From a virus (lineage: Duplodnaviria; Caudoviricetes): a stretch of 64,000 nucleotides of DNA. The position numbers were made by a program, and so were the translations under genes. The DNA lies in the IMG/VR virus record IMGVR_UViG_3300035522_000179, positions 32,001 to 96,000 of that record. One strand, 5' to 3'. The notes below the pieces were generated by a model. The model was given only the letters and a program-made list of their open reading frames with translations. It did not search any database and had not been told where the DNA came from. Shown here in pieces: positions 1,166 to 18,586 of the stretch (its first letter is position 1; each line of letters opens with the position of its first letter).

Positions 1166-1642
1166 TCAAATCATTTCAAGTAACAAATCTCTTTCTTCTT
1201 CACTGATTTCTCCATACCGACAAGATTCGTAAATCTCCAAACGAAGATCATCCGTAGATTCTTTGATTCCTTTGAGTTTTTTCTGTGCATCCAGATATCT
1301 GCCTGCTTTGTATTTTTCTTCCGGAGATTCTCCCTCATTGCCATGATACTGCATCCAGTTGCTTTTCGTGTTTTTTGCATATTGTTTGCCGGCATCACTC
1401 TTACATCCACGAGGACTGTATTTTGTGATATCAGACCCAAGTCTATTAAATGCATCAGTTTTTATAGCACTCATTTTGGTATGATAGTAATCAGCTTTTT
1501 TATGTGCAAGATTAGTATTCATACTATCAAATATGTCACGTTTTTTCCTTGCTTTGATATATTCATCCTGTAATTTATTCGCCCATTTGTTATACGCATT
1601 TGCTTCCATCACGACATCATACAATTCATCAAAATTAGCCAT
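1166..1642 (-). CDS. Tagged-family protein type A (MANFDELYDVVMEA... / ...IYESCRYGEISEEERDLLLEMI), putative internal head protein
   Basis: Paralog of 2712, 6587 and 11620 genes: conserved ends, variable middle. Confidence 0.8.
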   Translation of the reverse strand: MANFDELYDVVMEANAYNKWANKLQDEYIKARKKRDIFDSMNTNLAHKKADYYHTKMSAIKTDAFNRLGSDITKYSPRGCKSDAGKQYAKNTKSNWMQYHGNEGESPEEKYKAGRYLDAQKKLKGIKESTDDLRLEIYESCRYGEISEEERDLLLEMI

Positions 1643-1734
1643 AATTATTTCCCTCTCTTTTTACAGATTTTATTGGTCTACATTTCTGTACCTGTATAAA
1701 ACAATAATACTAAAGTATTATTGTTTTATACAGG
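1596..1734 (+). repeat. 139-bp module identical to 12092..12230 (type A gene start + leader + palindrome)
   Basis: Direct base-by-base comparison. Confidence 0.9.
1691..1734 (+). repeat. 44-bp palindrome, copy 1 (AA core)
   Basis: CCTGTATAAAACAATAATACT-AA-AGTATTATTGTTTTATACAGG, perfect 21-bp arms. Confidence 0.97.
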
Positions 1735-1792
1735 AGGAAAAAACTTTTTATAAAAATTTATCATCCCCTCCTGTTTTTAAATCCCTAGAAAA

Positions 1793-1804
1793 AACAAATT
1801 AATA
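1793..1804 (+). promoter_or_regulatory. Late promoter motif AACA-N6-TA (representative; 17 copies listed in findings)
   Basis: AACA-AATTAA-TA upstream of gene 1853; same spacing recurs upstream of structural genes. Confidence 0.75.
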
Positions 1805-1852
1805 AATGATTTCAAAAACGAAAAAAATAAGAAAGATAAAGGAGAAAAAGAA

Positions 1853-2578
1853 ATGGAACAGCCATATACACCTAGGAAATCAAAGGACGAATTGAAATCC
1901 GTAAGGTTCGTATTAAAAGATGTTAAGAAAAGAGTTCAGCAAGCAAAAAAAAACGGGGACGTAGATGAATTAGAAAAATGCAATGAAAAAATAGATGTAC
2001 TAATCGATCATATGAAAAAAGTAAAATTGAATGGGATAGGGTTTGAAGAACAGAGAAAAACGTATGCAAATATGTCTAAATTGTCGTTAGAAATTGGAGC
2101 AGTTTTTGGTTTGATGTATGTGGCACAAGGTAAATTACTAGAGAAATTTATGAAGAAATCTATCGAGAATCGTTCAATTGAATATAGTGCAGTTTATACG
2201 TGCCCTCCTAGCAAAGAACGAGATAAATTAGAGGAAGAGTGTGACAGACGATATGATAGAGATTATAAAATTGCTTCTAATTGGGAAAGCATGAAGGATT
2301 TAACTGGAATCATATCTATGGGAGGTGCTGTAGGAGCTATAGAGACCGGAATAGAAAGTACCGGTGGGGCAAGATTACAAATGAAAATGAATAAACAGAT
2401 AAAAATTCTTGAAAAAATGAGTAGAGAGTTAAAAGCAGAAATCCAGCAATTGAAATCTCAACAGCGTGGTATAAAAGAGTCTGTGAATGATGTAAGACTT
2501 GAGATTTATGAGTCTTGCTATTACGGTGATATTACAGAGGACGAGAGAGATCTGCTTCTGGATATGATTGAAGAGTAA
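1853..2578 (+). CDS. Tagged-family protein (C-terminal tag only; hydrophobic segments and coiled coil)
   Basis: Ends IKESVNDVRLEIYESCYYGDITEDERDLLLDMIEE; AAGGAG RBS. Confidence 0.8.
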   Translation: MEQPYTPRKSKDELKSVRFVLKDVKKRVQQAKKNGDVDELEKCNEKIDVLIDHMKKVKLNGIGFEEQRKTYANMSKLSLEIGAVFGLMYVAQGKLLEKFMKKSIENRSIEYSAVYTCPPSKERDKLEEECDRRYDRDYKIASNWESMKDLTGIISMGGAVGAIETGIESTGGARLQMKMNKQIKILEKMSRELKAEIQQLKSQQRGIKESVNDVRLEIYESCYYGDITEDERDLLLDMIEE

Positions 2579-2628
2579 TATAAAACTAGATAGAATCATT
2601 ATTTGATTCTATCTAGTTTTTTCTTTTC

Positions 2629-2675
2629 CTGTAAAAATAACAATCTATCTAATAGATAGATTGTTATTTTTACAG
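2629..2675. repeat. Variant 47-bp palindrome followed by the TTTTATACAGG half-site
   Basis: CTGTAAAAATAACAATCTATCTA-A-TAGATAGATTGTTATTTTTACAG, perfect 23-bp arms, upstream of gene 2712. Confidence 0.85.
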
Positions 2676-2711
2676 TTTTATACAGGTAGAGTATTATAAG
2701 GAGGATTATAA

Positions 2712-3248
2712 ATGAGTAGATTTGATGAATTGTATGATGTGGTGATGGAAGCAAATGCGTATAACAAATTGGCGAATAATTTAAAAGATGAGTATGATAG
2801 AGAACGCAAGAAACGTGATAGTTATCGTCGTCGTTTAAGAAATTTGTCACCTGATAATCTCCTAATTAACAAAGCTGATTATAATACTAACAAAGTTGAT
2901 TATACTAACAAAGCTAATTATCATGATACAAAAATGCATGTTGCAGATACGGCGTACTATAATCAGATCGGTGGTAATATCCAAGATTACTGTCCTCACG
3001 GGAATAGATTTGGTACTTGCGAAGATTATAGAATTGCAAGAAAGAAGAAGAAAGAGTGGATGAAAAACCATGGAAATGTTGGAAAATCTCCGGAAGAGCG
3101 ATACAAAGAAGGCAGATATTTAGACCAACAGAAAGAACTCAAAGGAATCAAAGAATCTGTGGATGATATCCGTTTGGAGATTTATGAATCCTGTCGGTAT
3201 GGAGATATCTCGGAAGAAGAAAGAGATTTGTTATTGGAAATGATTTAA
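2712..3248 (+). CDS. Tagged-family protein type A (MSRFDELYDVVMEA...)
   Basis: Shared N- and C-terminal blocks; GAGGA RBS. Confidence 0.8.
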   Translation: MSRFDELYDVVMEANAYNKLANNLKDEYDRERKKRDSYRRRLRNLSPDNLLINKADYNTNKVDYTNKANYHDTKMHVADTAYYNQIGGNIQDYCPHGNRFGTCEDYRIARKKKKEWMKNHGNVGKSPEERYKEGRYLDQQKELKGIKESVDDIRLEIYESCRYGDISEEERDLLLEMI

Positions 3249-3290
3249 AGAATCTAGAAGAGATATATTAATATATCTCTTCTAGATTCT
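3249..3290. terminator. 42-bp perfect palindrome between convergent genes
   Basis: AGAATCTAGAAGAGATATATT/AATATATCTCTTCTAGATTCT. Confidence 0.75.
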
Positions 3291-3296
3291 ATTTTT

Positions 3297-4637
3297 TCAG
3301 ATCATCATTATTAGCTCATCTCTATCTTGCTCTGTTATCAATCCGTCATTAAATGATTCCATAATCATTAATACTGTATCAATATCTGAATCATCTCCAG
3401 ATTCTAATTCCAATGTTCTATCACCAGCATAAAAGTTCGGAAATAATGTTGTAATAATATCAGTTCTTCCTTGGAACATGGTATCAATTGCGGTTCTTGT
3501 TGCTGCAGTAATTACAAGATACTCCCCATTCACATTACCATCCAAATAATTCTGGTAAATCGTTTGAAGATCATTTATGCTTTCTTGAATCTCTTTTTTT
3601 ACTTTAGGATTCACGCCCGTTTTTGCGAGTTCTCTTTTCAGAAGTTCGATTGCGATAGTCGTTCTATTGGAAGAACTACCATGCATAGGACTAGTAAACT
3701 CATCTAAAATACTTGCTTCCGCCAATCGAATATCCGTTAATACTCGTATAATTGGGAAAGATGAAACTTTCTTAGTTCTTTTAAATTGCATTGATTGATC
3801 CGATTTATATAAAGCGGAGATAAGTTCTGGTCCATAACCATACGCAATAGCAAAAGAATCCGCAAATTCTTCTGATTTTTTCCCAGGTAACGTAAACAAT
3901 TGACTCACGGGGGATAATAAAACTTCAAGAGGTGTAAAAGGAATATTTATATAGGTGGATAATTTACGGATTTGAAGACCAATCCAATCGCCGGATTTAA
4001 GTAAAAATCCGTAAATAGATTTTATGATTGGAATCTTTTCAAAAATAAAACCTATAATTTTTTCACAAATCATATTAATCCTTCCAGGAATGAACTTTAA
4101 AGAATTCACATTATGAAATAAAGTACTTATCGGATCTATAAAATTTCTTTTTCTTAATTCATTCACAATACGAATGAACTTGATTAACCATGAAACCCCT
4201 TTATAAAAACTAAAATCAAAATTATGACCAATTTCATGCAAGATTAGGGCAGTGTACTCTCTCGGGGTAATGTCAATAGAGCGAACAAGTGCAGTTGATA
4301 AATTGATCAATGCAACGGTAGAGTGCGTTTTGTCATAATACCCTTTTTTTGAATCTATCTCAAACATACATTTTCCGGATACAACAGAATCTATAGAAGA
4401 ATATGTGGCTATTTGAGGAGAGAGTTCGGAATCTTTATACCACATGCAATAGGTTTCTTTAAACCCAAATTGCTTTGTGATTAAATTCTGTAATATTTTA
4501 TTCTCTGTGGAATTAGTTACATCATAATGGGGATCAATTTTAATTTTATCTATTATAATTCCAATTTGTTTTTCAATATTTGGAATCAATCCAGCTTTTC
4601 CGTAATATGCTTCCTGATATACATCAAACTCTTTCAT
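3297..4637 (-). CDS. Zincin-like (HEIGH) putative metallopeptidase with a degenerate family C-terminal tag
   Basis: EYTALILHEIGH, EEFADSFA, C-terminal MESFNDGLITEQDRDELIMMI; late motif at 4678-4689. Confidence 0.65.
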   Translation of the reverse strand: MKEFDVYQEAYYGKAGLIPNIEKQIGIIIDKIKIDPHYDVTNSTENKILQNLITKQFGFKETYCMWYKDSELSPQIATYSSIDSVVSGKCMFEIDSKKGYYDKTHSTVALINLSTALVRSIDITPREYTALILHEIGHNFDFSFYKGVSWLIKFIRIVNELRKRNFIDPISTLFHNVNSLKFIPGRINMICEKIIGFIFEKIPIIKSIYGFLLKSGDWIGLQIRKLSTYINIPFTPLEVLLSPVSQLFTLPGKKSEEFADSFAIAYGYGPELISALYKSDQSMQFKRTKKVSSFPIIRVLTDIRLAEASILDEFTSPMHGSSSNRTTIAIELLKRELAKTGVNPKVKKEIQESINDLQTIYQNYLDGNVNGEYLVITAATRTAIDTMFQGRTDIITTLFPNFYAGDRTLELESGDDSDIDTVLMIMESFNDGLITEQDRDELIMMI

Positions 4638-4806
4638 TTTATATAATTTTTCCTTTCTATTCAGTTACGGTTCATATTAGTATTTTGTTTTGTACATTTT
4701 CAAACTAGCAATTTTAATATAAACATATTTTTAAAATAAAAAATTTGTTTTTATACAGGAATACTTTTTATAGTAAAATCTTTTTATAAAAAGGAGAAAA
4801 ATAACT

Positions 4807-5547
4807 ATGGCTAATTTTGATGAGTTGTATGATATGATTAATGGTGCAACTTATGAATCCATGTTTGAGATTGACGATGATATGGATACAGATGATATTG
4901 CATATATCGAGAGTTGCAGGGATCTTACTGAGTACCTCGAAAAAACACGTATCACAGACAATGATGGAGAAGGTCCTTCTACTTTTAGAGAAAAACTCTC
5001 TAGATTTGCATTTAATAAAAAAGAAGATCTCAGAGAGGGCAAAGCTCGCATACAAGGTGCATTCGACAACGCAAGGATTAAGAAAATTCAGAAAGATATA
5101 GAGAAGAGAGAAAACTCTGATGGTGACGAGACTGTTCCTCAAAAGAAAATTTTTGCTCATTTGAGTAAAGGTGAAATCCTTGCAGGTGTTGGACTCTTAG
5201 CAGCCGCTGGTGTTGCTTCTCTTACCGTGATCAGACATAAGACAAAGAACAAAGAGATTGTTAAGACTGTAGATGATTTGAAGAAAGAGATTGAAGAGAT
5301 CAAGAAGTCTGCTAAAGCAGGTGAAATTTCTGTTAGAGAAGCTTGGAGTGAAACAAGAAGAATTAACAAAGAGATCAAAGCTCTCGAGAAAGCTGCTGAG
5401 GCTGAAGAGAAAGCTAATGCTGCTGAGGAAGCGAAGAAGGCTATGAAGGAGTCTGCTGATGATGTAAGACTTGAGATTTACGAGTCTTGCTATTACGGTG
5501 AGATTTCCGAGGACGAGAGAGATCTGCTTCTGGATCTTATGGACTAA
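4807..5547 (+). CDS. Tagged-family protein (MANFDELYD leader, TM-like helix, coiled coil, C-terminal tag)
   Basis: ILAGVGLLAAAGVASLTVI hydrophobic stretch; ends LEIYESCYYGEISEDERDLLLDLMD; degenerate palindrome/late motif at 4717-4759. Confidence 0.8.
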   Translation: MANFDELYDMINGATYESMFEIDDDMDTDDIAYIESCRDLTEYLEKTRITDNDGEGPSTFREKLSRFAFNKKEDLREGKARIQGAFDNARIKKIQKDIEKRENSDGDETVPQKKIFAHLSKGEILAGVGLLAAAGVASLTVIRHKTKNKEIVKTVDDLKKEIEEIKKSAKAGEISVREAWSETRRINKEIKALEKAAEAEEKANAAEEAKKAMKESADDVRLEIYESCYYGEISEDERDLLLDLMD

Positions 5548-5604
5548 TAAAACAATAAATGACCATGAACTTATCGATTATGATAAGTTCATGGTCATAT
5601 TTTT
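5527..5604 (+). repeat. 78-bp module (LLDLMD-stop + bidirectional terminator 5559..5598) identical to 11536..11613
   Basis: Direct comparison; 17-bp stem ATGACCATGAACTTATC/GATAAGTTCATGGTCAT. Confidence 0.9.
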
Positions 5605-5612
5605 TTATTATG

Positions 5613-6464
5613 TTAAATCATCTCCAAAAGTAAATCTCTTTCTTCTTCCGAGATTTCTCCATACCGACAGGACTCATAAATCTCAAGTTTGATATCATTG
5701 TCAGAAGTAGATTCTTTCATGATTTTAGAAAATACTGCGTTTCTTGCAGATACTTCTCTCATGGTTTCCTCATATCTTTTATCTATTTCAGCAAGACTGG
5801 TCTCGATCTTTGCTTGAACAGCAGGGGAATCAACTTTCACTTTTTTAACTTCTCTATTGAGTTGTATAAGTAATTTTTTCAAATCCTTATAAATCCGATG
5901 CAATTCTGTTACGAGATCATTGTATTTGGTAACTTCTGCATCTATTAATGAAAGTTTTTTTGTAGCATTCACAAATTCCTTTGAATTGTAATTCTTATTC
6001 ATTACTTCAGTTGTATTTGATTTTGCTGAAGAGATTCCTCCAACATCACTGGCAACTTTAGTAATAGATAATCCTCCGTTGGAATTTTCAGTCAATGTTA
6101 CCGTAGGAGCTCCTGATGTTTCAGCGATTATAGCATAAGCCAATGTCATAGTTTCCAGGCGACTGGCATGTTCATTTAATTCCTTCGTAACTTTATTAAT
6201 TTCTTTTTCTTTTTTTAGAATCTCATCCCGAATTGATTTCAATTGCGGATTTTTGTTGTATCCATTCTCTTTTCTCTTATTATCTGTGATGACAAGTCCA
6301 GCAACAAGCCCAACAACAGCAGAGACCAAAGCTCCGATACCTACCATTGGAGCATATTTTTTAATTTTTTGCTTTGTGGCAGGTGACATTTTTTCTACGT
6401 AATAATTATCTTCATTAACCGATTCTACTGTGCAATATAACTCTGTAAATTTATCCATATTCAT
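5613..6464 (-). CDS. Tagged-family protein type B (MNMDKFTELY... leader, TM-like helix, long coiled coil, tag)
   Basis: Paralog of 10729..11556; AAGGAG RBS before ATG 6464. Confidence 0.8.
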   Translation of the reverse strand: MNMDKFTELYCTVESVNEDNYYVEKMSPATKQKIKKYAPMVGIGALVSAVVGLVAGLVITDNKRKENGYNKNPQLKSIRDEILKKEKEINKVTKELNEHASRLETMTLAYAIIAETSGAPTVTLTENSNGGLSITKVASDVGGISSAKSNTTEVMNKNYNSKEFVNATKKLSLIDAEVTKYNDLVTELHRIYKDLKKLLIQLNREVKKVKVDSPAVQAKIETSLAEIDKRYEETMREVSARNAVFSKIMKESTSDNDIKLEIYESCRYGEISEEERDLLLEMI

Positions 6465-6538
6465 TTTCTCCTTTTTAGAATAAGAATGAGTCAACCTGTA
6501 TAAAACAATAATACTTTAGTATTATTGTTTTATACAGG
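6385..6538 (-). repeat. 154-bp module, inverted copy of 10655..10808 (1 mismatch)
   Basis: Palindrome + leader + codons through YYVEKMS. Confidence 0.9.
6495..6538 (-). repeat. 44-bp palindrome, copy 2 (TT core on + strand, opposite orientation)
   Basis: Identical arms; lies between divergent type B and type A genes. Confidence 0.97.
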
Positions 6539-6586
6539 TACAGAAAGCAGATTAGTACAAATATAAAAAAAGAGAGGGAAATAATT

Positions 6587-7096
6587 ATGGCTAATTTTGA
6601 TGAATTATATGATGTTGTAATGGAAGCAAATGCGTATAACAAATGGGCGAATAAATTGAAAAATGAGTATGATGATCATATGAAATCATATCATGATAAT
6701 CAAGACAAAATAATAAATAATAATAAATCCATTTTTGACCCCAGATCTAAAGTATGGGGGTATGCGGCAGATGCTAAAAAACATTTCAATGCCGCATATG
6801 ATATCGAGGATCAATATCGTTCTCAGACTGGTGAAAAAGAAATGAATTATTCACCACACGGAGACGAAAGAAGTGTTTATCAATCTTCTGTTCCGAAGCA
6901 AACTTGGATGAAAAAACATGGAAATGTTGGAAAATCTCCGGAAGAGAGATACAAACCAAATCGTTATTTAAACATCCAACAAAAAATAAATGGGACGAAG
7001 GAATCTGCAAATGATATTCGTTTGGAGATCTATGAGTCTTGTCGGTATGGAGAAATCAGTGAAGAGGAAAGAGATTTACTTTTGGAAATGATTTAA
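6587..7096 (+). CDS. Tagged-family protein type A
   Basis: MANFDELYDVVMEANAYNKWANKL...IYESCRYGEISEEERDLLLEMI. Confidence 0.8.
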   Translation: MANFDELYDVVMEANAYNKWANKLKNEYDDHMKSYHDNQDKIINNNKSIFDPRSKVWGYAADAKKHFNAAYDIEDQYRSQTGEKEMNYSPHGDERSVYQSSVPKQTWMKKHGNVGKSPEERYKPNRYLNIQQKINGTKESANDIRLEIYESCRYGEISEEERDLLLEMI

Positions 7097-7104
7097 AGTA
7101 ATAA

Positions 7105-7143
7105 AAATCTGGTAAAGGAATTTTAAATTCCTTTACCAGATTT
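7105..7143. terminator. Bidirectional hairpin (19-bp arms)
   Basis: AAATCTGGTAAAGGAATTT-T-AAATTCCTTTACCAGATTT between convergent genes. Confidence 0.75.
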
Positions 7144-7147
7144 GTTT

Positions 7148-9610
7148 TTATAATAATTCAGACATCTCTCGTTCAATTACTTCTAACACATCGATATCTT
7201 CAAATGTCGATTCCACTACGGGTCTCTCTTCCACTTTGGGATTTAAAATAGAATCTACAAAGTCATTAATTGCCGATTCCATTTTTTGATCTTCATCTGT
7301 TTCTTTGCTTTCTTTCAGATGTTCTACCCAGTCTTTCAGCGCGCCCATATAGCGTTTCTTCCATTTTTCAAATGCTTCATTCGGCGTTCCATCTTTTTCG
7401 TTGTAAGTATATGCTCTTACATAAATTCCAGTTGTATCGGAGTTTTTATTCAAATACCATCCTTCTGGAATCGTATCAAACTTATACTTCTTATCAAAGG
7501 TCAGTCGTGCAGTAGTGTAAATCTTTCCATGGTATACACCATCTCGATAACCATCTTCTTTAATTCTAGATCTATTATGTCCAGAGCAAGAATACTTCAC
7601 TGTATATCCAAGCTTATTCAAAAGATTTACGATGGGTTTAATATCCTCATCGATCTCATCTTCATCACTTTCTGTGACAACCAGTTCCTTATCAAAGTCA
7701 ATCTGATTCAAAACCTTCTCACAGATTTTTTCTGTTTCATTCTGAGAAACCAAATCGGTTGCAAATCGGTTCACTCTTTCTGTAAACTTGATATCATCCA
7801 GTTTGGTGTCAAACACAGATTCAAATACGTTATAGCAAGAATCAAACAAATTCGTACTAGGAGATTCATTGATCAGATCAACCATGTAATCAAACACATT
7901 ATCTGTATCAACACAAGCCTCTTCACAAACAGAATTGATCATAAACACCAATTCTTCTTTTCGGTTTTCAACGGATTCAGAGATGGTGTTGTAATTGCAA
8001 TCCTTTGCTTTCTTCATAAGAGAAAGTTTTTTATCACTCACCTCTTCAAAGGAATTTTCATAGTACGGATGATTCTCATTAAGAGTTCCATTATACGTGT
8101 CATTTACCCACTCGTTAATAATGATACTCTCCTTTCTAAAGTTCTTAACAGATTCCAAGACATCTTTTTCAGATTTCCTTTCTTCTCTTTCTTTCTTTTT
8201 CGCAGCTTCCTCTTTCTTTGCTCTCTTAACCTCTTTATAGTTTTCGATTGCATGATCAAAGGCGTTTTCTGCTTTATCTCGGTTTGCATCGTAGTTCGGA
8301 TCATCTTCCGGATCTTTTTCCAGAATCTTCTTTAACTTTCTTGCAGCGTCGCGAACATCGGATGCATCTGATTTCAATCCTAATTCTACCTTGTCTTCAA
8401 TTGCAGATTCTTTTACTGCACCTTGAATTTCATAAGAAATATCAACTCCAGTATTTACAGAACTAAATTCGCAGGTAATCAACATCTCTTTTATGCGTTT
8501 TATATAATGAGTGATCTGTCCATTTTCTTTTACTGGACTAAATCCACAAGAAGTGATGGTTTTCCGAATCATATTAGGATCTGCTTTATCGTTTGAAAAA
8601 GAAAATCCATATTTATTCTTTTTCGTGTTCAGACAAGATTTAAAACTAGTTGCATCATCTCCAGGATTAGAAAGTTTTAAATCTTTCTTCAACTTATCAA
8701 ACAGCTTTCTTGCTTCGGTATCAAAGGTGGGATTGTTTTTAAATACTGCAGCAGCTTCCGTAGTAACAAAGAGATTATTTGAACGGAACCATTGACCAGT
8801 ATATCCCAAAACGGATTCCAAAGAGTTAAACCTAGGAATCATTCTATCCTCTTCTCTTACCACATCCTCTGTTAAATCGTCTTCATTGGAATTAATTTCT
8901 GCATCTGTACTAGAAACCATATCCTTCACAGATACTCCGGAAAGATCTTTCGATAACACATTTCCAGTGAGAGGAATTACAGGAGCCATTGCACCAACAG
9001 ATTCATCGTCATTAAACAAAGACTGTGTAAATCCAGTGAGTACTGATGCATCCTCTAAAGTGATTGCGCCAGTAAGTGCTTTGCTACAGATTACTTTTTC
9101 GTATAAGTAATCTCTACTTACCCTTTCATCCGGAAAAGCACGGTAAAGATTTCTTGTAAGATCATCAAATCCATCCTCTCCAGCAGACTCGATGTATTTT
9201 GCAAGTTCATCTCTTTTCTCATCTGCTACAAGACTTGCCATCTTTCCTACCGTAGAATCGTTTTCCCAGGTAGATTCCAAAGTATAATCTTCATAAAAAG
9301 AATCTCCTTCCCTTCTTTTGATGATCTCTTTGAAAGGAAGAACTGCTTCTCCAAAGAATAAATTATTTACAGTTGGAATCTCATCTCCAAGCTCGGAAAC
9401 ATCCAATCCTCTTTCTACCAATGCTTCTTCATCTGCTCTTACAATATCAATCATTGCAAGGGCTTCGGATTCCGTAAGAAATCCAAAATTATAGTTGTCA
9501 TTAATTGCATCTAAAATTTTAATATCTTCTGCGACTTTCGCTTCCATGTAACGAGAAGTAAAAGGAATATCAAAAGTTGCAGGAATAGGTCGCATGTCAA
9601 AATTACTCAT
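7148..9610 (-). CDS. Large acidic putative inner-head protein with many x-x-E|S sites and a Tyw3-like (SCSGH) domain
   Basis: MSNFD start; repeated TLES/VKES/VLES/VTES/KMES; IDEDIKPIVNLLNKLGYTVKYSCSGH; late motif at 9636-9647. Confidence 0.6.
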   Translation of the reverse strand: MSNFDMRPIPATFDIPFTSRYMEAKVAEDIKILDAINDNYNFGFLTESEALAMIDIVRADEEALVERGLDVSELGDEIPTVNNLFFGEAVLPFKEIIKRREGDSFYEDYTLESTWENDSTVGKMASLVADEKRDELAKYIESAGEDGFDDLTRNLYRAFPDERVSRDYLYEKVICSKALTGAITLEDASVLTGFTQSLFNDDESVGAMAPVIPLTGNVLSKDLSGVSVKDMVSSTDAEINSNEDDLTEDVVREEDRMIPRFNSLESVLGYTGQWFRSNNLFVTTEAAAVFKNNPTFDTEARKLFDKLKKDLKLSNPGDDATSFKSCLNTKKNKYGFSFSNDKADPNMIRKTITSCGFSPVKENGQITHYIKRIKEMLITCEFSSVNTGVDISYEIQGAVKESAIEDKVELGLKSDASDVRDAARKLKKILEKDPEDDPNYDANRDKAENAFDHAIENYKEVKRAKKEEAAKKKEREERKSEKDVLESVKNFRKESIIINEWVNDTYNGTLNENHPYYENSFEEVSDKKLSLMKKAKDCNYNTISESVENRKEELVFMINSVCEEACVDTDNVFDYMVDLINESPSTNLFDSCYNVFESVFDTKLDDIKFTERVNRFATDLVSQNETEKICEKVLNQIDFDKELVVTESDEDEIDEDIKPIVNLLNKLGYTVKYSCSGHNRSRIKEDGYRDGVYHGKIYTTARLTFDKKYKFDTIPEGWYLNKNSDTTGIYVRAYTYNEKDGTPNEAFEKWKKRYMGALKDWVEHLKESKETDEDQKMESAINDFVDSILNPKVEERPVVESTFEDIDVLEVIEREMSELL

Positions 9611-9677
9611 TTTTTCCACCAACTTTCCATAGAATTATCAGATTGTTTTTGCATCTAAGGCAAACTAACATTAAAAT

Positions 9678-9792
9678 AATGAAAATACCAAATAGACGTA
9701 AAATGCTTGTTTAAGTTTCTGATTTGTTTTAATCTCCCATTGTTTTTTGAATAAGGAAGACACTCTGTATGTAGTGTCTTCCTTATTCTTTT
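9678..9792 (+). ncRNA. Candidate ~110-nt late small RNA
   Basis: AACA-N6-TA at 9667-9678, 16-bp terminator stem at 9749-9788, no credible ORF between. Confidence 0.35.
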
Positions 9793-9839
9793 CGTTAAAT
9801 TTACACTGGGAAACAATTTTTTAAAGAGGTGAAGATAAT

Positions 9840-10199
9840 ATGATTACAAATACATCAAATATCTTTGAATTTAAAACAAAAGAAACAGGATATATTGCAA
9901 AAGCTTGTGCTGCGCCAGAAGCAGGAGAGAAAAGAGAAATTTATATTCCAAGACTTATGCCGAATATAAAATCAGGAACCCCAAAAACATCCACTCTATC
10001 TTCTAGAGGAAATTTGGTGTTTAAAAACGCACCCGCTTGTAAAGTTCAAGCAGCAACCGTTTTGAAATCCCAAAACTATATCATGGTTCCTTATGAGAAA
10101 AATAAAACATGGGATGATCCAGAAATTAAGAGTATGACCCAAATTACTTGCAATTGCAAAAATAACACCATTGCTGGAATCACATTCTCAAATGATTAG
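9840..10199 (+). CDS. Hypothetical virion/baseplate-associated protein
   Basis: GAGGTG RBS, late motif at 9812-9823, adjacent to gp53-like gene. Confidence 0.55.
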   Translation: MITNTSNIFEFKTKETGYIAKACAAPEAGEKREIYIPRLMPNIKSGTPKTSTLSSRGNLVFKNAPACKVQAATVLKSQNYIMVPYEKNKTWDDPEIKSMTQITCNCKNNTIAGITFSND

Positions 10200-10210
10200 A
10201 GGAGTAAACT

Positions 10211-10630
10211 ATGAGTACACAAAATAGTAGTACACTGGAAACCCAGGTATATAATGAATTGAAAAATGATTTGATTTATAGGGATTTAAATTCTACGCTT
10301 GAAATATTAGATCGAGAGAGCAATGAAAAGATTGTAATACCTTATATTTCTACGGTATCAAAATATATGGATTTTTTAAAATCAATTATATTAGAAGTGG
10401 AATTGACAGATATTCAATATGAGAGATATCGGCAAAATCCTCATGCGGTATCGGAAGCATTGTATGGAACAACGCAGTATTGGGATATCTTACTGAAACT
10501 AAACAACTGTGTTAGTAGATTTGAGTTCAACAAAAAGAAAATCAAATACTACGACCCATTAGAATTAGTGACGTATTTGAATGAGTTAGTGATAAAAGAA
10601 GACGAACTTGCAAATACAAGTTCGTACTAA
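10211..10630 (+). CDS. Baseplate wedge protein, T4 gp53/LysM-like
   Basis: YRQNPHAVSEALYGTTQYWDILLKLNN signature. Confidence 0.7.
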   Translation: MSTQNSSTLETQVYNELKNDLIYRDLNSTLEILDRESNEKIVIPYISTVSKYMDFLKSIILEVELTDIQYERYRQNPHAVSEALYGTTQYWDILLKLNNCVSRFEFNKKKIKYYDPLELVTYLNELVIKEDELANTSSY

Positions 10631-10654
10631 TTTTTATAATTTACCCCCCCCCCC

Positions 10655-10698
10655 CCTGTATAAAACAATAATACTAAAGTATTATTGTTTTATACAGG
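10655..10698 (+). repeat. 44-bp palindrome, copy 3 (AA core)
   Basis: Identical to 1691..1734. Confidence 0.97.
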
Positions 10699-10728
10699 TT
10701 GACTCATTCTTATTCTAAAAAGGAGAAA

Positions 10729-11556
10729 ATGAATATGGATAAATTTACAGAGTTATATTGCGCAGTAGAATCGGTTAATGAAGATAATTATTACGTAGAA
10801 AAAATGTCTGCAGACGCTAGTTCGAAACTTAAAAAAGCTGCAGCAATAGCAGGTGTTGGAGTACTTGTTTCTGGTATTGTTGGACTTGTTGCTACAGATA
10901 GTAAGAGGACAGAATATGGATATAATAAAAATCCTGAGATGAAAGTTCTTCGAGATCAAATTCTCAAGAGAGAAAAAGAACTCAAAAAAGCAGTAACTAA
11001 CCTTGAACAACAAACAAAAAGGGTGGAAGCAATTGCACAAAGTTACAATACAATTGCAAACCAAATTGGAAAAGTTACTATTACATTGGAGGAAAACTCC
11101 AATGCAGGGTTAAGCATTAAAGAAGAGAATAAAATTGGATTTATTAGGGGAAAGAGTTCCGAAAAGGAAAATCCGAATTATTCTACGAAAATCTATATGG
11201 ATGCTTCTAAAAAAAGAGAAATCTTAAATATGGAAGTTGAAAAATACAATGTGCTAGTTAAAGAAGTAAACGATATTTATAAAGATTTACAGAAGTTGCT
11301 CAAAAAATTCAATAGCGCTGTGAAGATGTTGAAAGTGTCACCTAAAGTACAGGCAAAACTTACTGAAGAATTGAGTAAGATTGAAGAAAGATATAGTGAC
11401 GCTTTAACCGATATTAATGAAAGAAATGCCCAGTTTTCTAAATTTGTGAGAGAATCGGAAGAAGATACAAATGCAAAACTTTTTGTCCATGAGTCTTATC
11501 GATGTGGTGATATTACAGAAGAGGAAAGGGACATTCTTCTGGATCTTATGGACTAA
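10729..11556 (+). CDS. Tagged-family protein type B
   Basis: Paralog of 5613..6464; ends HESYRCGDITEEERDILLDLMD. Confidence 0.8.
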   Translation: MNMDKFTELYCAVESVNEDNYYVEKMSADASSKLKKAAAIAGVGVLVSGIVGLVATDSKRTEYGYNKNPEMKVLRDQILKREKELKKAVTNLEQQTKRVEAIAQSYNTIANQIGKVTITLEENSNAGLSIKEENKIGFIRGKSSEKENPNYSTKIYMDASKKREILNMEVEKYNVLVKEVNDIYKDLQKLLKKFNSAVKMLKVSPKVQAKLTEELSKIEERYSDALTDINERNAQFSKFVRESEEDTNAKLFVHESYRCGDITEEERDILLDLMD

Positions 11557-11619
11557 TAAAACAATAAATGACCATGAACTTATCGATTATGATAAGTTCA
11601 TGGTCATATTTTTATTACA

Positions 11620-12138
11620 TTAAATCATTTCCAAGAGAATATCTCTTTCTTCTTCACTGATTTCTCCATACCTACAGGATTCATAAATCTCCAAACGAAG
11701 ATCATCCACAGATTCTTTGATTCCTTTGAGTTCTTTCTGTTGGTCTAAATATCTGCCTGCTTTGTATCGTTCTTCCGGAGATTTTCCAACATCACCATGC
11801 TTTTTCATCCAATTTTTTTTAACACATTTAAAAGCAAATCTATCTCCGTAAGGTTCATCGTCATTTTTAAATCCATGTCTACTGTAATCTTTCAAACTAC
11901 TCATTCCGTCAACACTGTCATTATATCTACCTACTGCATGGGATCCTTTTTCAAAATGATCTTCAGCTTTCTTTCGTAATTCTTTTTTATATTCAGGGTC
12001 ATCTGCGTTATTAGCTAGTCTATTAAGTAATATATGCTTTTTTACATCCTTTTTATATTCATCCTGTAATTTATTTGCATATTTATTATATGCATTTGCT
12101 TCCATCACGACATCATACAATTCATCAAAATTAGCCAT
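11620..12138 (-). CDS. Tagged-family protein type A
   Basis: 5' DNA identical to gene 1166; a 58-bp 3' block is identical to gene 2712. Confidence 0.8.
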   Translation of the reverse strand: MANFDELYDVVMEANAYNKYANKLQDEYKKDVKKHILLNRLANNADDPEYKKELRKKAEDHFEKGSHAVGRYNDSVDGMSSLKDYSRHGFKNDDEPYGDRFAFKCVKKNWMKKHGDVGKSPEERYKAGRYLDQQKELKGIKESVDDLRLEIYESCRYGEISEEERDILLEMI

Positions 12139-12186
12139 AATTATTTCCCTCTCTTTTTACAGATTTTATTGGTCTACATTTCTGTA

Positions 12187-12230
12187 CCTGTATAAAACAA
12201 TAATACTAAAGTATTATTGTTTTATACAGG
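12187..12230 (+). repeat. 44-bp palindrome, copy 4 (AA core)
   Basis: Identical to 1691..1734. Confidence 0.97.
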
Positions 12231-12319
12231 GGGGGGGTAAATTATAAAAAACTTCAAAAAAAATAAGCTAAGAGATGTATGTTGCATCTCTTAGCTTATT
12301 TTCTATTCCTTGCTTTGTA

Positions 12320-12454
12320 CTACTTGTTCTCTTCATACCATTCCCGGTATTCATCCTCGGTTGAGAATAACTGATACGCATCGAACCCTTTTTCATCTTT
12401 CCCAATAAAGCCTTCACAACCATTTGATACAAGATAAAATTTGTACTCTAACAT
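12320..12454 (-). CDS. 44-aa early protein (MLEYKFYLVSNGCEGF...STEDEYREWYEENK), not in the ORF track
   Basis: AAGGAG RBS, early motif at 12594-12611, hairpin terminator near 12262-12302. Confidence 0.65.
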   Translation of the reverse strand: MLEYKFYLVSNGCEGFIGKDEKGFDAYQLFSTEDEYREWYEENK

Positions 12455-12707
12455 ATTTTTCTCCTTTCCTTTGGTGGCTTAAAACAGTTTATTAATTTCA
12501 TGTTTTGAGACATTTGAAAATAGTGATAAATAGTGCAAAGAACTTTTATAATTGAGTATGTATACATTTATACATACTCAATTATCTGTGTATTTCATGC
12601 AAATAATATATGAATCAATTTTCCTTGTTTTCAATTTATTTTTATATACTAAAATACACTTCATTAATCACAAGAAACTGATAAAATGAAGAAAGGATGG
12701 TATTAAC

Positions 12708-13079
12708 ATGAGTTTAATATCAGCAGAACGATTACATAGATGGAAATGTGTCTATTGTGGATCAAAGGATAAAAACATTGTGAATATACTTGCTCCGCTT
12801 GCGGAAGGAGAAGAAAATCTTGTAGGATCGACTGGTGAAGTAAATGGAAATAAGTTGGGTTCTGCTATGAAGATTGTGACCTGTTCTCAGTGCGGACATA
12901 CGGATATTTTTTCACATTCCGCTCTTATGGCAGGGCATATTCTTAGGAATGAAAAAATTCCAACATTTACGGAATCGGAAAACTATGTCAAAAAATTCCA
13001 TGATAAAAATCACAACGATCCTCTTAGAAATCCACACAATGAACACCCATCAACGACAACACCTAAAAATACCATTTAA
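12708..13079 (+). CDS. Zinc-ribbon protein
   Basis: CVYC...CSQC pairs. Confidence 0.6.
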   Translation: MSLISAERLHRWKCVYCGSKDKNIVNILAPLAEGEENLVGSTGEVNGNKLGSAMKIVTCSQCGHTDIFSHSALMAGHILRNEKIPTFTESENYVKKFHDKNHNDPLRNPHNEHPSTTTPKNTI

Positions 13080-13136
13080 CAAGGAAGGAAGAATACTCAG
13101 TTAAATTACAAAATAAGAAAAGGACGGTAAACTAAC

Positions 13137-13904
13137 TTGAGTATTAATTTTATGAATGATGAGGAAAAATATGAATCTAGTTCCTTTCTCTCTAAGGTAC
13201 CTGTGTCGTTATTAAAAGAAAACATTACAACGCAATTTAAAGATCCTGAGAATTTTCGAATTGATTATGTATCGTCATTTATTGATTCTTTTAATTATTC
13301 GATCGGATCGATTGAAGATTCCGATGAGGAAGAAGAATTGCTTACCTTACATGATGATTTCATAGAGTTTATGGAATCCATGATCTATGAAAAATTAGGA
13401 GTAGGAATTGAAGGATTAGAAGAACTCAGTAGACAAGATCAGGAAGATTTGATTTTGTTTACCTATCGATTCTTTATCATCAATATCCGAAAGAACTTCT
13501 TTAACCTGTTCTTTAATTATATCAAAGAGCACAAAGAAGAATTACTTGCAAATGCAAAACGCTATAAGGATGTCACTAGTCAGGCGTTTAAAAAAGAGAT
13601 TAGTGAGGAAGACACTACAATCCTTGCAAACTTGTCAGAGTTTATGGATTGCGCTATACAGGATGATCGATTAACGATTGATGATTTTTTCCGTTATTGT
13701 GAGGGAGATAAGTCGTGTGTAGAAACGATGTTTGTAACAAAGGCATTTGATGATTTTACGTTAACAGGAAACTTTATTAAGACCTATGCAAAATTAGTAA
13801 GACCTACTATGCGAATTCGTATTGAAGCGGAAATTCGAAATAATATCTTGAAAAAATACCGAGAAGCGGCTCCAGAACTTTCGGAGTATCAATTAGAAGA
13901 TTAA
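13137..13904 (+). CDS. Hypothetical protein
   Basis: 255-aa ORF with AAGGA RBS. Confidence 0.65.
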   Translation: MSINFMNDEEKYESSSFLSKVPVSLLKENITTQFKDPENFRIDYVSSFIDSFNYSIGSIEDSDEEEELLTLHDDFIEFMESMIYEKLGVGIEGLEELSRQDQEDLILFTYRFFIINIRKNFFNLFFNYIKEHKEELLANAKRYKDVTSQAFKKEISEEDTTILANLSEFMDCAIQDDRLTIDDFFRYCEGDKSCVETMFVTKAFDDFTLTGNFIKTYAKLVRPTMRIRIEAEIRNNILKKYREAAPELSEYQLED

Positions 13905-13926
13905 CAAGCAAAAAAGAAAAATAAAC

Positions 13927-13944
13927 ATATACTATTTTCGTGAA
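13927..13944 (+). promoter_or_regulatory. Early promoter motif ATATAYYAT-N5-TGAA (representative; 11 copies listed in findings)
   Basis: ATATACTAT-TTTCG-TGAA; recurs upstream of non-structural genes. Confidence 0.7.
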
Positions 13945-13972
13945 TAATTAATAGAAAGGTGGATTTAAGTTT

Positions 13973-14779
13973 ATGTGGGGAACAAATCAAAACCGTATGA
14001 ACAACAGCCAAGACACAAACGTAAACACAATACTGCGTACATCATCATCGGATACTTCATCCTTAACGATTTCTTTATGGAATCAGAATATCAGTTTGAA
14101 GATTCGTCCCGCCGTTGGTGTGGATGGAAATGGAATTACCCAATATGATAAGGGTAGATCTGGAAATACTGCTCTGACACAAGAAGCAGCAGCTTCCTTG
14201 TTTGAAGAGTTTAAGAATGTTATTCTTCCGGTTTACAACAAGGTCGTTTTGGAAGGGGAACCCTGCCCGGAGAACCTTGGAATTGTTGTAGAGACGGGAA
14301 GAGATGCAAAGAGGAATTTGGTTGGTATTGAGATGAGACCTTCCAAAGATGAAAGAGATACAACACCGGATATGTATTTCGTTCTTTATGGAATGGTGGA
14401 TGAGAATGGAACTGCTGTAGAAGCAAACACCTTCCGTCACAAATTCCAAAAGAGACTGGTGAAGGTAGGATATAATCCTATGAATGGTGTTTCCCAAAGA
14501 GAGATTCGTTCCAATTCGGATTTTAATCTCTTTTTGAATATCATTGGAAAGACAGAGTTGCTTCTTCCTTATTCGGAGCACGTATCAAAATATAACAAAG
14601 AAAGATTTAAAGGAACAAGTTCAAATTCTGGATCCTTTGGACAGAGCGGAGGATTTCCGAGTGGCTCTCTTCCTCAGTCTTCTGGAACCAACTTTAGTTC
14701 CAATGGTCCTTCCAGTTATGGAGGATTTGGAGGAGCAAGTAACTTTGGTCTCGACAACGGAGAGATTCCGTTTAATTAA
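13973..14779 (+). CDS. Probable single-stranded DNA-binding protein
   Basis: beta-rich N-domain, G/S-rich linker, acidic tip DNGEIPFN like the SSB DDDIPF tail. Confidence 0.55.
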   Translation: MWGTNQNRMNNSQDTNVNTILRTSSSDTSSLTISLWNQNISLKIRPAVGVDGNGITQYDKGRSGNTALTQEAAASLFEEFKNVILPVYNKVVLEGEPCPENLGIVVETGRDAKRNLVGIEMRPSKDERDTTPDMYFVLYGMVDENGTAVEANTFRHKFQKRLVKVGYNPMNGVSQREIRSNSDFNLFLNIIGKTELLLPYSEHVSKYNKERFKGTSSNSGSFGQSGGFPSGSLPQSSGTNFSSNGPSSYGGFGGASNFGLDNGEIPFN

Positions 14780-15601: not shown

Positions 15602-17749
15602 ATGGAAGATCGAGTTAGTTTTATTGAAGGAGTAACCAAATACGACCCCGAAATAAACGTGGTTGGGAAAGAAGTAATGGATGAAAGAGTTGCCGTGGTA
15701 TTTGATCAGATTGCAGAAATTCTGCAAAAATCTTTGGGACCTATGGGCGCTCATACCATTATTTCTCAGTCCCCTTTTTATCATGTGACGAAAGATGGAT
15801 TTACCATCATGAAGAACTTAAGATACAATTCTGAGTATGGTTATGTGGACCAGGTGATTGCAGGAATGATCTCAGACATCTGTGGAAGATTAAACTTCGC
15901 AGTAGGAGATGGCACAACTTCTGCAGTTGTTGCATCCAACCATATGTATCAGGTTTTCTTAAGTAATAACGAAGAACTGACACAGAAGTTCTTCTTGCCT
16001 AGAAATATTATCAATCGTATGAAAGAACTTACGAATGATATCATAGAGGATTTAAGTTCCAATGCAACCGATATCAAGTCTCTTCCGGTTGATGAGATGT
16101 GTAACGCAATAAGAGACGTTGTATACATCTCTTCCAATGCGGATAAGGAAATGACCGATATTATTGTGAACTTATACAAAGAACTGGAATATCCAGCAAT
16201 CAATGTGGTAAAATCCGCAGATGGAGTTACCAGAGGAAAAGTGATTGATGGATTTATGTTTCCTGCAAAGCTTATGGATAAGCTTTATGTAAATAACGAT
16301 AACAAAACGCAGGAAGGAACGGATTACGACATTCTGATCTTTGATCACAAGGTGGGATTACCGGCTTATAATTATATCTTAAAGCCCCTCTCCCATATGT
16401 CGAAAACAAGAGGTCGTAAGCTTATTTGTTTGGCTCCGAACTACGATGAAGTAGCATTACAAGGAGATATCCAAAATGCTTTGAATGCAGAGTATCGGGC
16501 AACCAGAGATATTTCTTTGGTTCTTATGGGATATAAAGCAACGACATCGAACGACAGAGCCAGAGTTACGGATTTGGCAATGCTTTGCAATACCCAAGTA
16601 ATCACGAAATCCATGGAGAATGAACTTTGTGCAAAAGTAGAGAAGATCCTCATGAATCCGGATAATAACGGCGTAATAGCAGATTGTGATTTCCCTTTCA
16701 ATATGGATTTTCGAAATATCGAAGGAATTAAAATTGTTCTTCCATTGGATCATGTTACAGTGACCTATACGGAGGAAGAGTTTGGCACGATGTTCTATAG
16801 TGACGCTTCTCGTACAGAAGAAGATATCTATTTGAGAGTCGGATTTGTTGGTGAGGTATCTCTGGCATTGGACGGAGAATCCACCTTCAACAAATTCTAT
16901 TATGATCAAATCATTTACGATAGATATTTAAAAGATGCAGAGATGCAGCTTGAACTCGTAACAGAGAAATACAAGAGACTTGCTACTTTTAACTTCGAGA
17001 TTGATGAAGCAAGAAAGAGACTTCTTGGGTTGAAACTGAAGATGGGTCAGATCGAAGTCGGTGCAACCTCTGAGTTTTCTCAGGAGTTTTTAAGAGATGC
17101 TATGGATGATGCCGTACTTGCGGCACAGTCTGCTTATTCCAATGGAATTATCCTTGGTGGACACATCAGCCTATTGAGATCGATTCGGAACCTGATGAAG
17201 AAATCTACAAATGAATCGGATAAGTTTTTATTGGAGTGCTTCTTTGAAGCGTTCTGTCATGTTCGATTCTCTGTACTTGGAAATGGTTTCGACAATAAAG
17301 TCATTAGCATAAATAATCTTTTGAAGGAATATCGAAAGGAAGACAAGTATAAAGATGCACCGTCAGATACAAGGATTATCTCCGATGAGTTCTTCAATAT
17401 TTTACAAAAGTACTCAGGAGTTGAAATCACTACAAAAGATGAAAATTCGTATGCGAAAATGTTTACTTTTATACACTGTCTTTTGAGTGAACTTCATATC
17501 GATAACTCAGATAAATATAAAGATATCACCTTGTTTGATTTAATCGTTGAATTTGAGATTTACATGGGTCTTGTGTTAAATTTGGATATGAATCAGTCCA
17601 GCACCAAGCCAGTAATCTATTTCGACGATAAAGTGGTAAATAGTCTTGCAACGGATCGAGAGATTTTAATTGCTTCTTCTGACCTTGTTGGTTTGCTTAC
17701 CACAGGAAATCAGTTGGTAATTTCTAGATCAAACACCGCAAGATATTAA
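15602..17749 (+). CDS. Phage chaperonin, GroEL-like (elongated)
   Basis: SLGPMG, VTKDGFTI, GDGTTSA, DDAVLAAQSA, GIILGG motifs; late motif at 15560-15571. Confidence 0.92.
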   Translation: MEDRVSFIEGVTKYDPEINVVGKEVMDERVAVVFDQIAEILQKSLGPMGAHTIISQSPFYHVTKDGFTIMKNLRYNSEYGYVDQVIAGMISDICGRLNFAVGDGTTSAVVASNHMYQVFLSNNEELTQKFFLPRNIINRMKELTNDIIEDLSSNATDIKSLPVDEMCNAIRDVVYISSNADKEMTDIIVNLYKELEYPAINVVKSADGVTRGKVIDGFMFPAKLMDKLYVNNDNKTQEGTDYDILIFDHKVGLPAYNYILKPLSHMSKTRGRKLICLAPNYDEVALQGDIQNALNAEYRATRDISLVLMGYKATTSNDRARVTDLAMLCNTQVITKSMENELCAKVEKILMNPDNNGVIADCDFPFNMDFRNIEGIKIVLPLDHVTVTYTEEEFGTMFYSDASRTEEDIYLRVGFVGEVSLALDGESTFNKFYYDQIIYDRYLKDAEMQLELVTEKYKRLATFNFEIDEARKRLLGLKLKMGQIEVGATSEFSQEFLRDAMDDAVLAAQSAYSNGIILGGHISLLRSIRNLMKKSTNESDKFLLECFFEAFCHVRFSVLGNGFDNKVISINNLLKEYRKEDKYKDAPSDTRIISDEFFNILQKYSGVEITTKDENSYAKMFTFIHCLLSELHIDNSDKYKDITLFDLIVEFEIYMGLVLNLDMNQSSTKPVIYFDDKVVNSLATDREILIASSDLVGLLTTGNQLVISRSNTARY

Positions 17750-17767
17750 AAGAAAGGAAATGGTTTT

Positions 17768-18586
17768 ATGGCAAATGGTGCTGTTTACCAAACCTTAAGC
17801 GAATTTTTTTATAATCCCTTTGGAGTAGATGCTTCCAAAGAAATTCAGAAGTTATCTCCTAAGTATGAAAAGAGTAAAGCGAGGATTGAACTCCATGGAT
17901 ATGCTATCCTGGATGATTCGTATTATTTTCATATTTGGATCCCTTCCGATTCACAACCGGGGAAGAAATACGATGTGGTAATTCAGTTTCTTCCCCCGAA
18001 GGGGATTGAAATTGAATCGACCCTGGATCATTATGTGATTCAGTTCTTTTCCAATTCACCGAGTTTTATTTATAAATATGCAGTTCTTTACAAAGAAAAA
18101 GGATATATGATTGACGCACTACAGTCAAAATTAGATCCTGAGTATGCAGGTAAAGCTCCGGTGGTTTCCAATGCGCAATTAGCGTTAAGCATTGATAAAT
18201 CGATTTATTTTGCCGTAAGATTTCTTTACGAGAATCGACTTACGTATTTATCAAAACCTTCTCTTCGATATGTCACGAAGTTTGACTTTAGGTTCTTGGT
18301 TTCATCCATTGATGATAACAAAACTTCCTTAGGACGAACCGCGTATGATATTGAGAAGGAAGCAATCAAAGAAGGAAAAAGCGATAGAGATAAAATCACA
18401 AAGAAAGTAAAAAAGGCGTTAGGAATCAAAACGCCAGAAGATGACAACAGAGGAATTGGTAAAAAATCCAAAAAAACCGCTGTAACATCTACCATTACTG
18501 GTGGACGAAAAAGTCCAATTCAATCAAAGAAACAACCCATCGGTAAGAATAAAAAGATTACCGCTGGGAGAAGGACTGGAAAATAG
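17768..18586 (+). CDS. Hypothetical protein with basic C-terminal tail
   Basis: 272-aa ORF directly downstream of the chaperonin gene. Confidence 0.65.
   Translation: MANGAVYQTLSEFFYNPFGVDASKEIQKLSPKYEKSKARIELHGYAILDDSYYFHIWIPSDSQPGKKYDVVIQFLPPKGIEIESTLDHYVIQFFSNSPSFIYKYAVLYKEKGYMIDALQSKLDPEYAGKAPVVSNAQLALSIDKSIYFAVRFLYENRLTYLSKPSLRYVTKFDFRFLVSSIDDNKTSLGRTAYDIEKEAIKEGKSDRDKITKKVKKALGIKTPEDDNRGIGKKSKKTAVTSTITGGRKSPIQSKKQPIGKNKKITAGRRTGK

Follow-up and report, generated by a model that had tools for sequence, protein, structure and literature searches.

The question raised by this locus is how two convergent genes came to lie between two identical palindromes in direct orientation, and what the palindromes do there. 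The gene pair, a type B gene followed by a type A gene on the opposite strand, belongs to a unit at positions 10631 to 12250 of a 64,000-nucleotide stretch (the window), which corresponds to bases 32,001 to 96,000 of the 249,613-bp IMG/VR virus genome IMGVR_UViG_3300035522_000179 (36% GC). Outside the palindromes, the unit carries a run of 13 Cs (C13) on the left, a run of nine Gs (G9) on the right and, at both ends, a perfect inverted 13-mer. The first-pass annotation of this DNA had listed these elements (13-mers, C13, palindromes, B, A and G9), every one of which is present in the sequence, and had taken the whole as a circular cassette integrated into an attachment site in the manner of integrons. 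We propose a different reading, in which our belief and our doubt are evenly balanced: the palindrome would be a leader control element of a multigene family and, secondarily, a recombination linker that allows modules to be shuffled or excised.

The repeat is 44 bp long and consists of a perfect 42-nt palindrome plus an outer C/G, with 21-nt arms flanking a non-palindromic AA core. Four copies are present in the whole genome, as compared to zero expected by chance, and all of them are inside the window; their 42-nt forms start at 1692, 6496 (reversed), 10656 and 12188, and they are referred to here as S1 to S4. S3 and S4, which bound the unit, are identical and direct (both centres read TAAA) and lie 1,532 bp apart. 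C13 and G9 each share one base with a 42-nt palindrome, whose end base is the last C of the former or the first G of the latter, and the 44-bp repeat overlaps the homopolymers by two Cs and two Gs. The hairpins formed by the palindromes are stable on folding. All four copies are found at the 5' ends of genes of one family and their polarity is constant: when the core is read as AA, the leader of an A gene is on the left and that of a B gene on the right, except where the leader is replaced by the C-run (S3), the G-run (S4) or the upstream region of gene 1853 (S1). The arms of a diverged perfect palindrome (P') are homologous to the 44-bp site, with changes that are mirrored in both arms, and P' is identical in a metagenome contig of a related phage (L005). 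These findings argue for selection on symmetry.

The family to which A and B belong has at least 11 genes in the genome, nine of which are in the window (1166 to 7096 and 10729 to 12138), the others being at genome positions 133,3xx to 134,572. Three non-family genes, one of them baseplate-wedge-like, lie between the main block and the B/A unit. The family proteins have in common an N-terminal leader (MANFDELYD or MDKFTELYC) and a C-terminal tag of about 30 amino acids (...LEIYESCRYGEISEEERDLLLEMI), which reads G-E-I-S-E-E-E-R-D-L-L-L; between these ends the proteins are unrelated or hypervariable, and an HExxH motif is present in one of them (3297 to 4637). A profile search found 83 metagenomic relatives, and the N-terminal leader is kept at the protein level even in the distant ones. 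Pfam (searched also with the C-terminal tag alone), NCBIfam and the ESM Atlas gave no function for A or B, and the matches in PHROGs were weak and only to families of unknown function. Besides the shared tag, gene B encodes a predicted transmembrane helix and a coiled coil. In L005 (positions 1 to 1040; JGI 3300035516), two A-type genes with identical middles and different C-terminal tags are separated by a terminator and P'; the downstream terminator of this contig differs from the hairpin between B and A (11568 to 11607) by a compensatory C/G swap.

The sequences outside the palindromes suggest what the 13-mers and homopolymers may be. On four of the five independent flank types, a T-rich, -10-like box (TTTTTA[TG]A[AT][AT]) points inward at the palindrome from a distance of 10 to 14 nt, and once of 21 nt. 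Only 44 such boxes are present in 249.6 kb, and the probability of finding one at that distance by chance is 0.15% per random position, or 1.2% in AT-rich DNA. Since similar boxes point into the palindrome at like distances, the 13-mer is read as the box of each gene, and C13 and G9 as spacers. The 13-mer had been seen in the annotation as the outer part of a split, pre-existing attachment site, and we have abandoned this view in favour of a TATAAT-like box, similar boxes being found on most flanks of all four sites.

The genome has just two copies of the 13-mer, one per orientation, and only three runs of at least eight Cs or Gs, namely C13, G9 and a C11 beside another A-type gene at genome position 133,987. 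This C11 is part of a terminator hairpin (genome positions 133,960 to 134,006, outside the window) directly upstream of the gene, where it is paired with the purine-rich arm GGTGGAGGAG. To the right of S1, the box listed in Table 1 is contained in a 13-mer-like string between GAGG and the C-rich end; the arrangement resembles two back-to-back modules, that is, a degenerate 13-mer plus C-run, and its local alignments are marginally to moderately significant (23/500 and 3/500 shuffles). Because the S1 flank resembles back-to-back modules and the third C-run precedes an A-type gene, the extended symmetry can be attributed to the control module of the family. On the same sequences, 13-mer and C-run are probably not target DNA.

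At the palindromes, the family genes would then follow a common order: a T-rich, TATAAT-like box, a spacer of 10 to 21 nt, the 44-bp palindrome, a short leader with the ribosome-binding site (RBS), the gene and a perfect-hairpin terminator. Box, spacer, palindrome and leader were seen for five palindrome-facing genes. The 10631–12250 unit would consist of a B and an A module placed tail to tail on one terminator, and its extended inverted symmetry would arise because two inverted copies of one 64- to 68-nt module are present. Transcription may start a few nucleotides before the palindrome, in which case each mRNA would open with a 20-bp hairpin; alternatively, the palindrome may be bound by a dimeric regulator. 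In the divergent gene pairs the whole intergenic region is of 122 nt, 42 of which are palindrome, so that the promoters must overlap the palindrome, there being no other room for them. The features of the unit and of the other sites are collected in Table 1; the unit is located exactly between two convergent terminators.

Table 1. Positions in the window of the palindromes, of the parts of the B/A unit and of the inward-pointing boxes. Genes are designated by type and first position.
Feature	Position	Strand	Remarks
S1 palindrome	1691-1734		between A1166 and gene 1853; then GAGG, palindromic box TTTTTATAAAAA (1745-1756), CCCCTCC
P', diverged perfect palindrome	2629-2675		upstream of A gene 2712
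S2 palindrome	6495-6538	reversed, TT core on +	between divergent genes B5613 and A6587; boxes at 6472-6481 (+) and 6560-6569 (-)
Terminator-like hairpin	10602-10625	+	end of upstream gene 10211-10630; the T-tract of the hairpin continues into the 13-mer
Left 13-mer TTTTTATAATTTA	10631-10643	+	T-tract and TATAAT (10635-10640), aimed through the palindrome at gene B
C13 homopolymer	10644-10656	+	separates box from palindrome; an independent contig has at least 11 C
S3 palindrome	10655-10698		21-nt arms around an AA core
Type B gene	10729-11556	+	275 aa; ATG at 10735 is the likelier start (better RBS spacing)
Bidirectional terminator hairpin common to B and A	11568-11607		100% identical to 5559-5598
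Type A gene	11620-12138	-	172 aa, mosaic
S4 palindrome	12187-12230		direct relative to S3
G9 homopolymer	12229-12237	+	G11 in contig L026
Right 13-mer TAAATTATAAAAA	12238-12250	-	same box, aimed through the palindrome at gene A
Terminator hairpin of convergent downstream gene	12260-12302
Box TATAAT in left 13-mer	14 nt from palindrome		far-side gene B10729
Box TATAAT in right 13-mer	10 nt from palindrome		far-side gene A11620
Box TAGAAT	13 nt from palindrome		far-side gene A6587
Box TATAAA	12 nt from palindrome		far-side gene A1166
Box TATATT	21 nt from palindrome		far-side gene B5613

The second part of the proposal, that the palindromes take part in recombination, comes from the comparison of the copies with their surroundings. 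S3 and S2 are identical over the palindrome and 64 nt on the B side (about 107 nt at 100%), and S4 and S1 over the palindrome and about 97 nt on the A side (about 140 nt at 100%); beyond these tracts, inside the genes, identity drops sharply to 45–70%. Accordingly placed are the first 95 nt or so of gene B, which are 97–100% identical to gene 5613–6464, and the 5' end and leader of gene A, which are 100% identical to gene 1166–1642. The 3' block of gene A is instead 100% identical to a third paralog, gene 2712–3248. On the sequence comparison, this patchwork of identity indicates recent exchange among paralogs. The four identical palindromes would act as portable homology, and recombination between them and between the conserved gene ends would shuffle and invert modules and could also excise them. 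If so, the machinery for homologous exchange could be provided by the host.

The same tracts bear on a purely regulatory explanation, in which the repeats confer no mobility, the duplication is old, the identical tracts are maintained by selection on the leader and leader peptide, and a contig with a different arrangement (L022, described below) is a chimera. The architecture of box and palindrome is in fact common to all family genes at the sites, and the persistence of the leader peptide in distant relatives would be expected; moreover, L022 is short, comes from an assembly of low coverage and runs across an exact repeat of 107 nt. However, 100% nucleotide identity that includes synonymous and non-coding positions, beside regions at 45–70% and with partners that differ from block to block, is the signature of recent exchange and not of selection, and each outer module of the unit has its closest relative in the other, which is inverted, so that a rearrangement of some sort is needed. 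For these reasons we hold a purely regulatory role to be rather unlikely.

Contig L022, from another metagenome (JGI sample 3300043109), consists of the reverse complement of 6495–7967 joined via the palindrome to 10699–11890, with zero mismatches on either side. Its junction, A6587|palindrome|B10729, is the one expected from an inversion between the inverted sites S2 and S3. The contig may be an inversion isomer or may result from an assembler path swap across the 107-nt exact repeat, and we consider the two about equally likely. In contig L023, from a further sample, the arrangement of the window is kept at S2.

Since exact tracts of 107 nt (S2/S3) and about 140 nt (S1/S4) are near read length, it was also considered that the repeats were mis-joined in the window contig and that the palindrome-bounded unit does not exist as drawn. 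The conflicting junction of L022 would fit this, as would the fact that the junction C13|palindrome|B10729 is present in the window contig only, and that contig L028 ends with C11 followed by a tail of 18 Gs. Against it, collinearity with the window is seen in four contigs of other datasets: L029 and L030 at S1 (site 1692), L023 at S2 (6496) and L022 in the interior from B through the terminator to A. The outer flanks are also supported: on the left, the flank, the 13-mer and at least 11 Cs are present in L028, and on the right L024 is 100% identical to the window from the right palindrome arm through G9 and the 13-mer into the flank. Through its contigs, the phage is seen in datasets SRR11794809, SRR10148552, SRR11794512 and JGI 3300043109, 3300035520, 3300035521 and 3300035516. 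A contig of 249 kb, furthermore, implies a coverage sufficient to span 107 nt. An assembly artefact is therefore highly unlikely.

The lengths of the homopolymers vary between datasets (G9 as compared to G11 in L026:1-33, and C13 as compared to C11 followed by the G18 tail in L028:3615-3632), which reflects either real variation in the length of the promoter spacer or sequencing failure at a C-run next to a hairpin. The 22 nt that precede G11 at the start of L026 may be either a noisy arm of the palindrome or some other sequence. The end of L028 (13-mer, C11, G18) was considered as an empty site devoid of the palindrome and rejected, given that the G tail exceeds the C-run in length, has no 13-mer after it and resembles a dark-cycle poly-G artefact.

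Several observations weigh against the reading of the palindrome as leader control element and linker. Promoter activity, transcription starts and the 5' hairpin are deduced from the sequence only. The A-side flank of the S1/S4 type has no box, and a scan for sigma-70 promoters gave fewer matches than in shuffled sequences, with no enrichment and no evident -35 element. The AR9 promoter consensus (early AAATATATATTAT-N6-G, late AACA-N6-TA) did not fit; nearest to the late motif is AACA-N7-TAA, a candidate motif which ends at the core and is found on the B-directed strand only. In the distant A-family contig L033, no palindrome precedes the gene. With regard to recombination, no RecA, Rad51 or RecT-type recombinase was matched in the genome, where AAA_24 gave only P-loop-level matches; the path swap considered for L022 would remove the one inverted junction; and the sharp, symmetric 44-bp edges with an asymmetric AA core would be just as fitting for a site-specific system. 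As to the outer-arm motif TTTTATACAGG, it has four extra single copies in addition to those in the palindromes, one of them within an open reading frame (ORF) and one in an unclear gene context, and was not retained as a general promoter, as only two of the four (2676 and 4749) are upstream of family genes.

If the palindromes do recombine, the direct copies S3 and S4 make the unit excisable as a circle. Joined in silico, they gave a circle of 1,532 bp whose junction, A|site|B, matches the architecture found at 6495, and in this respect the geometry put forward in the annotation holds. The predicted empty site also behaves as foreseen: this hypothetical product, described in advance as a longer near-perfect palindrome, folds in silico at -38.3 kcal/mol into a stem of about 42 bp that is interrupted by a C bulge of 4 nt. 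The ends of the unit are direct repeats and 64- to 68-nt terminal inverted repeats at once, because the site is itself a palindrome. It is doubtful, although worth considering, that the two inverted modules arose when the circle was inserted by homologous exchange at a lone symmetric module; other possible routes are a series of inversions or copying by fold-back at the palindrome.

The likeness to integrons is limited to a circularisable unit bounded by a palindromic site, with a junction that is permuted between circle and array. Integron cassettes are moved by the tyrosine recombinase IntI, their attC site is an imperfect palindrome with extrahelical bases and GTTRRRY boxes, and most of their ORFs are promoterless. 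Here, in contrast, there is no IntI, the palindrome is perfect (21+2+21) with neither extrahelical bases nor a visible GTTRRRY core, and the two genes are convergent, have a TATAAT-like box each and a terminator in common, and lack a common Pc promoter or attI. A search of the 249.6-kb genome for tyrosine integrases (PF00589) was negative, the controls being positive in 14 of 14 genomes. Thus, of the integration first suggested, the geometry stands and recombination near the sites is plausible from the mosaic identity tracts and the L022 junction; its integron-like character, with no tyrosine integrase, no attC features and genes that have their own boxes and terminator, does not, and integron-like integration into an attachment site is, as judged from these features, not supported.

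A different enzyme might act on the same sites. The palindrome could be the crossover site of a phage serine recombinase that excises, integrates and inverts, the unit being a circle integrated at a solitary site. The perfect 21-nt arms, the non-palindromic AA core, the conserved polarity and the sharp symmetric edges in all four copies speak for it; the direct copies S3 and S4 predict excision, and S2 is inverted, L022 having the junction of an S2 x S3 inversion product. As in hix, gix and site I of res, half-sites are inverted, the polarity is consistent and both direct and inverted copies occur, and the 2-bp core is asymmetric as in hix and gix. However, the half-sites are far longer than those of hix, gix and res (21 nt vs. 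12–13 bp), and no adjacent recombinase, enhancer or accessory sites were identified. The centre of P' is 1 nt, which is incompatible with a 2-bp crossover, the identity tracts reach 64–100 nt past the site, as homologous exchange predicts, and long perfect palindromes are the rule for all hairpins in this genome, from which tyrosine integrases are absent. We regard recombination of this kind as distinctly unlikely.

A candidate enzyme for such a system is offered by the only recombinase-like genes of the genome, two tandem ORFs at genome positions 16761–18582 (L020:1258-3079, minus strand; 272 and 345 aa), outside the window and about 24–26 kb upstream of the cassette. Both have a MerR-type helix-turn-helix followed by a resolvase-like domain, the order found in IS607 transposases, and enzymes of the IS607 type use circular intermediates (PMC4058570). 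The matches were to phrog_6620 (2.6e-17) and to NF033518 (5.4e-16 and 7.9e-5, both below the family cut-off). On inspection by eye, their catalytic motifs are degenerate: one ORF reads RVPD, with Pro at the position of the catalytic Ser, and the DRLxR arginines are missing from both. No TnpB is adjacent. They may be domesticated DNA-binding proteins. It is hardly probable that the palindromes are crossover sites of a phage-encoded recombinase, possibly this pair, which would excise, insert and invert promoter-equipped cassettes of cargo genes as a hybrid of shufflon and integron for tagged, possibly virion-packaged proteins.

The near-perfect terminal inverted repeats and the position exactly between convergent terminators could also be taken to mean that the unit is a non-autonomous transposon, a 1.6-kb element with 64- to 68-nt repeats (13-mer, homopolymer and palindrome) that was moved in trans between terminators. 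The possible relic of a 13-mer and C-run beside S1 and the IS607-like ORFs elsewhere in the genome are consistent with this. Nevertheless, the flanks (...GTACTAA and ACTTCAA...) have no target-site duplication, the unit has no transposase, no Y1 transposase was matched in the genome, and no second copy of the full terminal repeat is present elsewhere in it. IS607 elements, moreover, have no terminal inverted repeats and join their ends via a direct GG (PMC4058570), whereas here a C-run faces a G-run. A transposon is very improbable.

Returning to a leader control element that doubles as a linker, the closest known system is that of the promoter-early stem-loop (PeSL) cassettes of T4-type phages. 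PeSLs are composites of promoter and stem-loop, often with polyG or polyC, that are located in plastic regions, ahead of orphan genes (Arbiol et al., 2010, PMC2839356; Comeau et al., 2014, PMC4122927); they involve homologous recombination and mini-circles, with no dedicated recombinase known (PMC2839356). The present locus is similar in that a promoter-like box and a stable stem-loop are repeated before orphan genes in a plastic region, with G/C homopolymer tracts, that the repeats are proposed to be linkers for homologous shuffling, and that direct copies would allow mini-circles. Yet there are differences in number and structure. Four or five copies are tied here to one gene family, as compared to about 50 PeSLs genome-wide; a 20-bp, AT-rich perfect palindrome lies downstream of the box, while the GGGG...CCCC stem of PeSLs is within the promoter; and one palindrome serves two divergent genes. 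The homopolymer spacers differ in length between datasets, and the host of the repeats is an uncultured jumbo phage of about 250 kb and not a T4 relative, in which promoter and terminator activities and circles are predictions. The case is thus distinguished from PeSLs by lineage, low copy number, the tie to one family, a long AT-rich shared palindrome and variable homopolymer spacers.

According to the discussion of the internal-protein (IP) loci of T-even phages (Repoila et al., 1994) in PMC2839356, AT-rich promoter/stem-loop repeats flank variable small genes with a targeting leader. The likeness lies in repeats that flank highly variable small genes whose products have a common leader; the sequences are unrelated. 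That the A and B proteins are packaged into the virion is a conjecture. A self-contained unit between the terminators of two core genes also recalls morons. These are reportedly self-contained transcription units with their own promoter and terminator (Hendrix et al. 2000). Morons, however, have no repeated flanking linker able to mediate movement.

If the palindromes mediate exchange, modular shuffling by regulatory hairpins would extend past T4-like phages to an uncultured jumbo phage, one bidirectional palindrome would be both gene control element and recombination linker for a family of tagged proteins, and a simple natural "landing pad" logic for the addition of genes to large phage genomes would be at hand. 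If their role is only regulatory, this would be an ordinary though neat case of paralogs with a common leader hairpin.

Searches for near relatives among cultured phages and IMG/VR contigs found none, whether made via the flanking baseplate-like protein, protein A, the A alignment or DNA, or by tblastn against cultured phages. The exact palindrome had zero matches in IMG/VR, and a single arm had 14 one-arm matches among metagenome contigs, none of them with both arms and all taken as chance. The search with protein B returned its own paralog only, and cluster look-ups gave singletons.

The hairpins between genes in window positions 1–14000 are unusually long and perfect, with stems of 17–20 bp, and a terminator scan of both strands gave 26 terminator-like sites as compared to 6.3 expected. 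Elsewhere, the palindromic sequence TGATATATCA, with GTGAATTCGAATA and AAAGTC motifs on its flanks, forms the core of a repeat of about 75–100 nt. Of the eight copies of this repeat in the genome, two are in the window (31987–32059 and 33213–33285); the repeat could be a promoter or a small-RNA element. Finally, positions 46248–48232 of the window contain at least nine tandem repeats of 234 bp (78 codons) within a 3,857-aa ORF (39219–50792).

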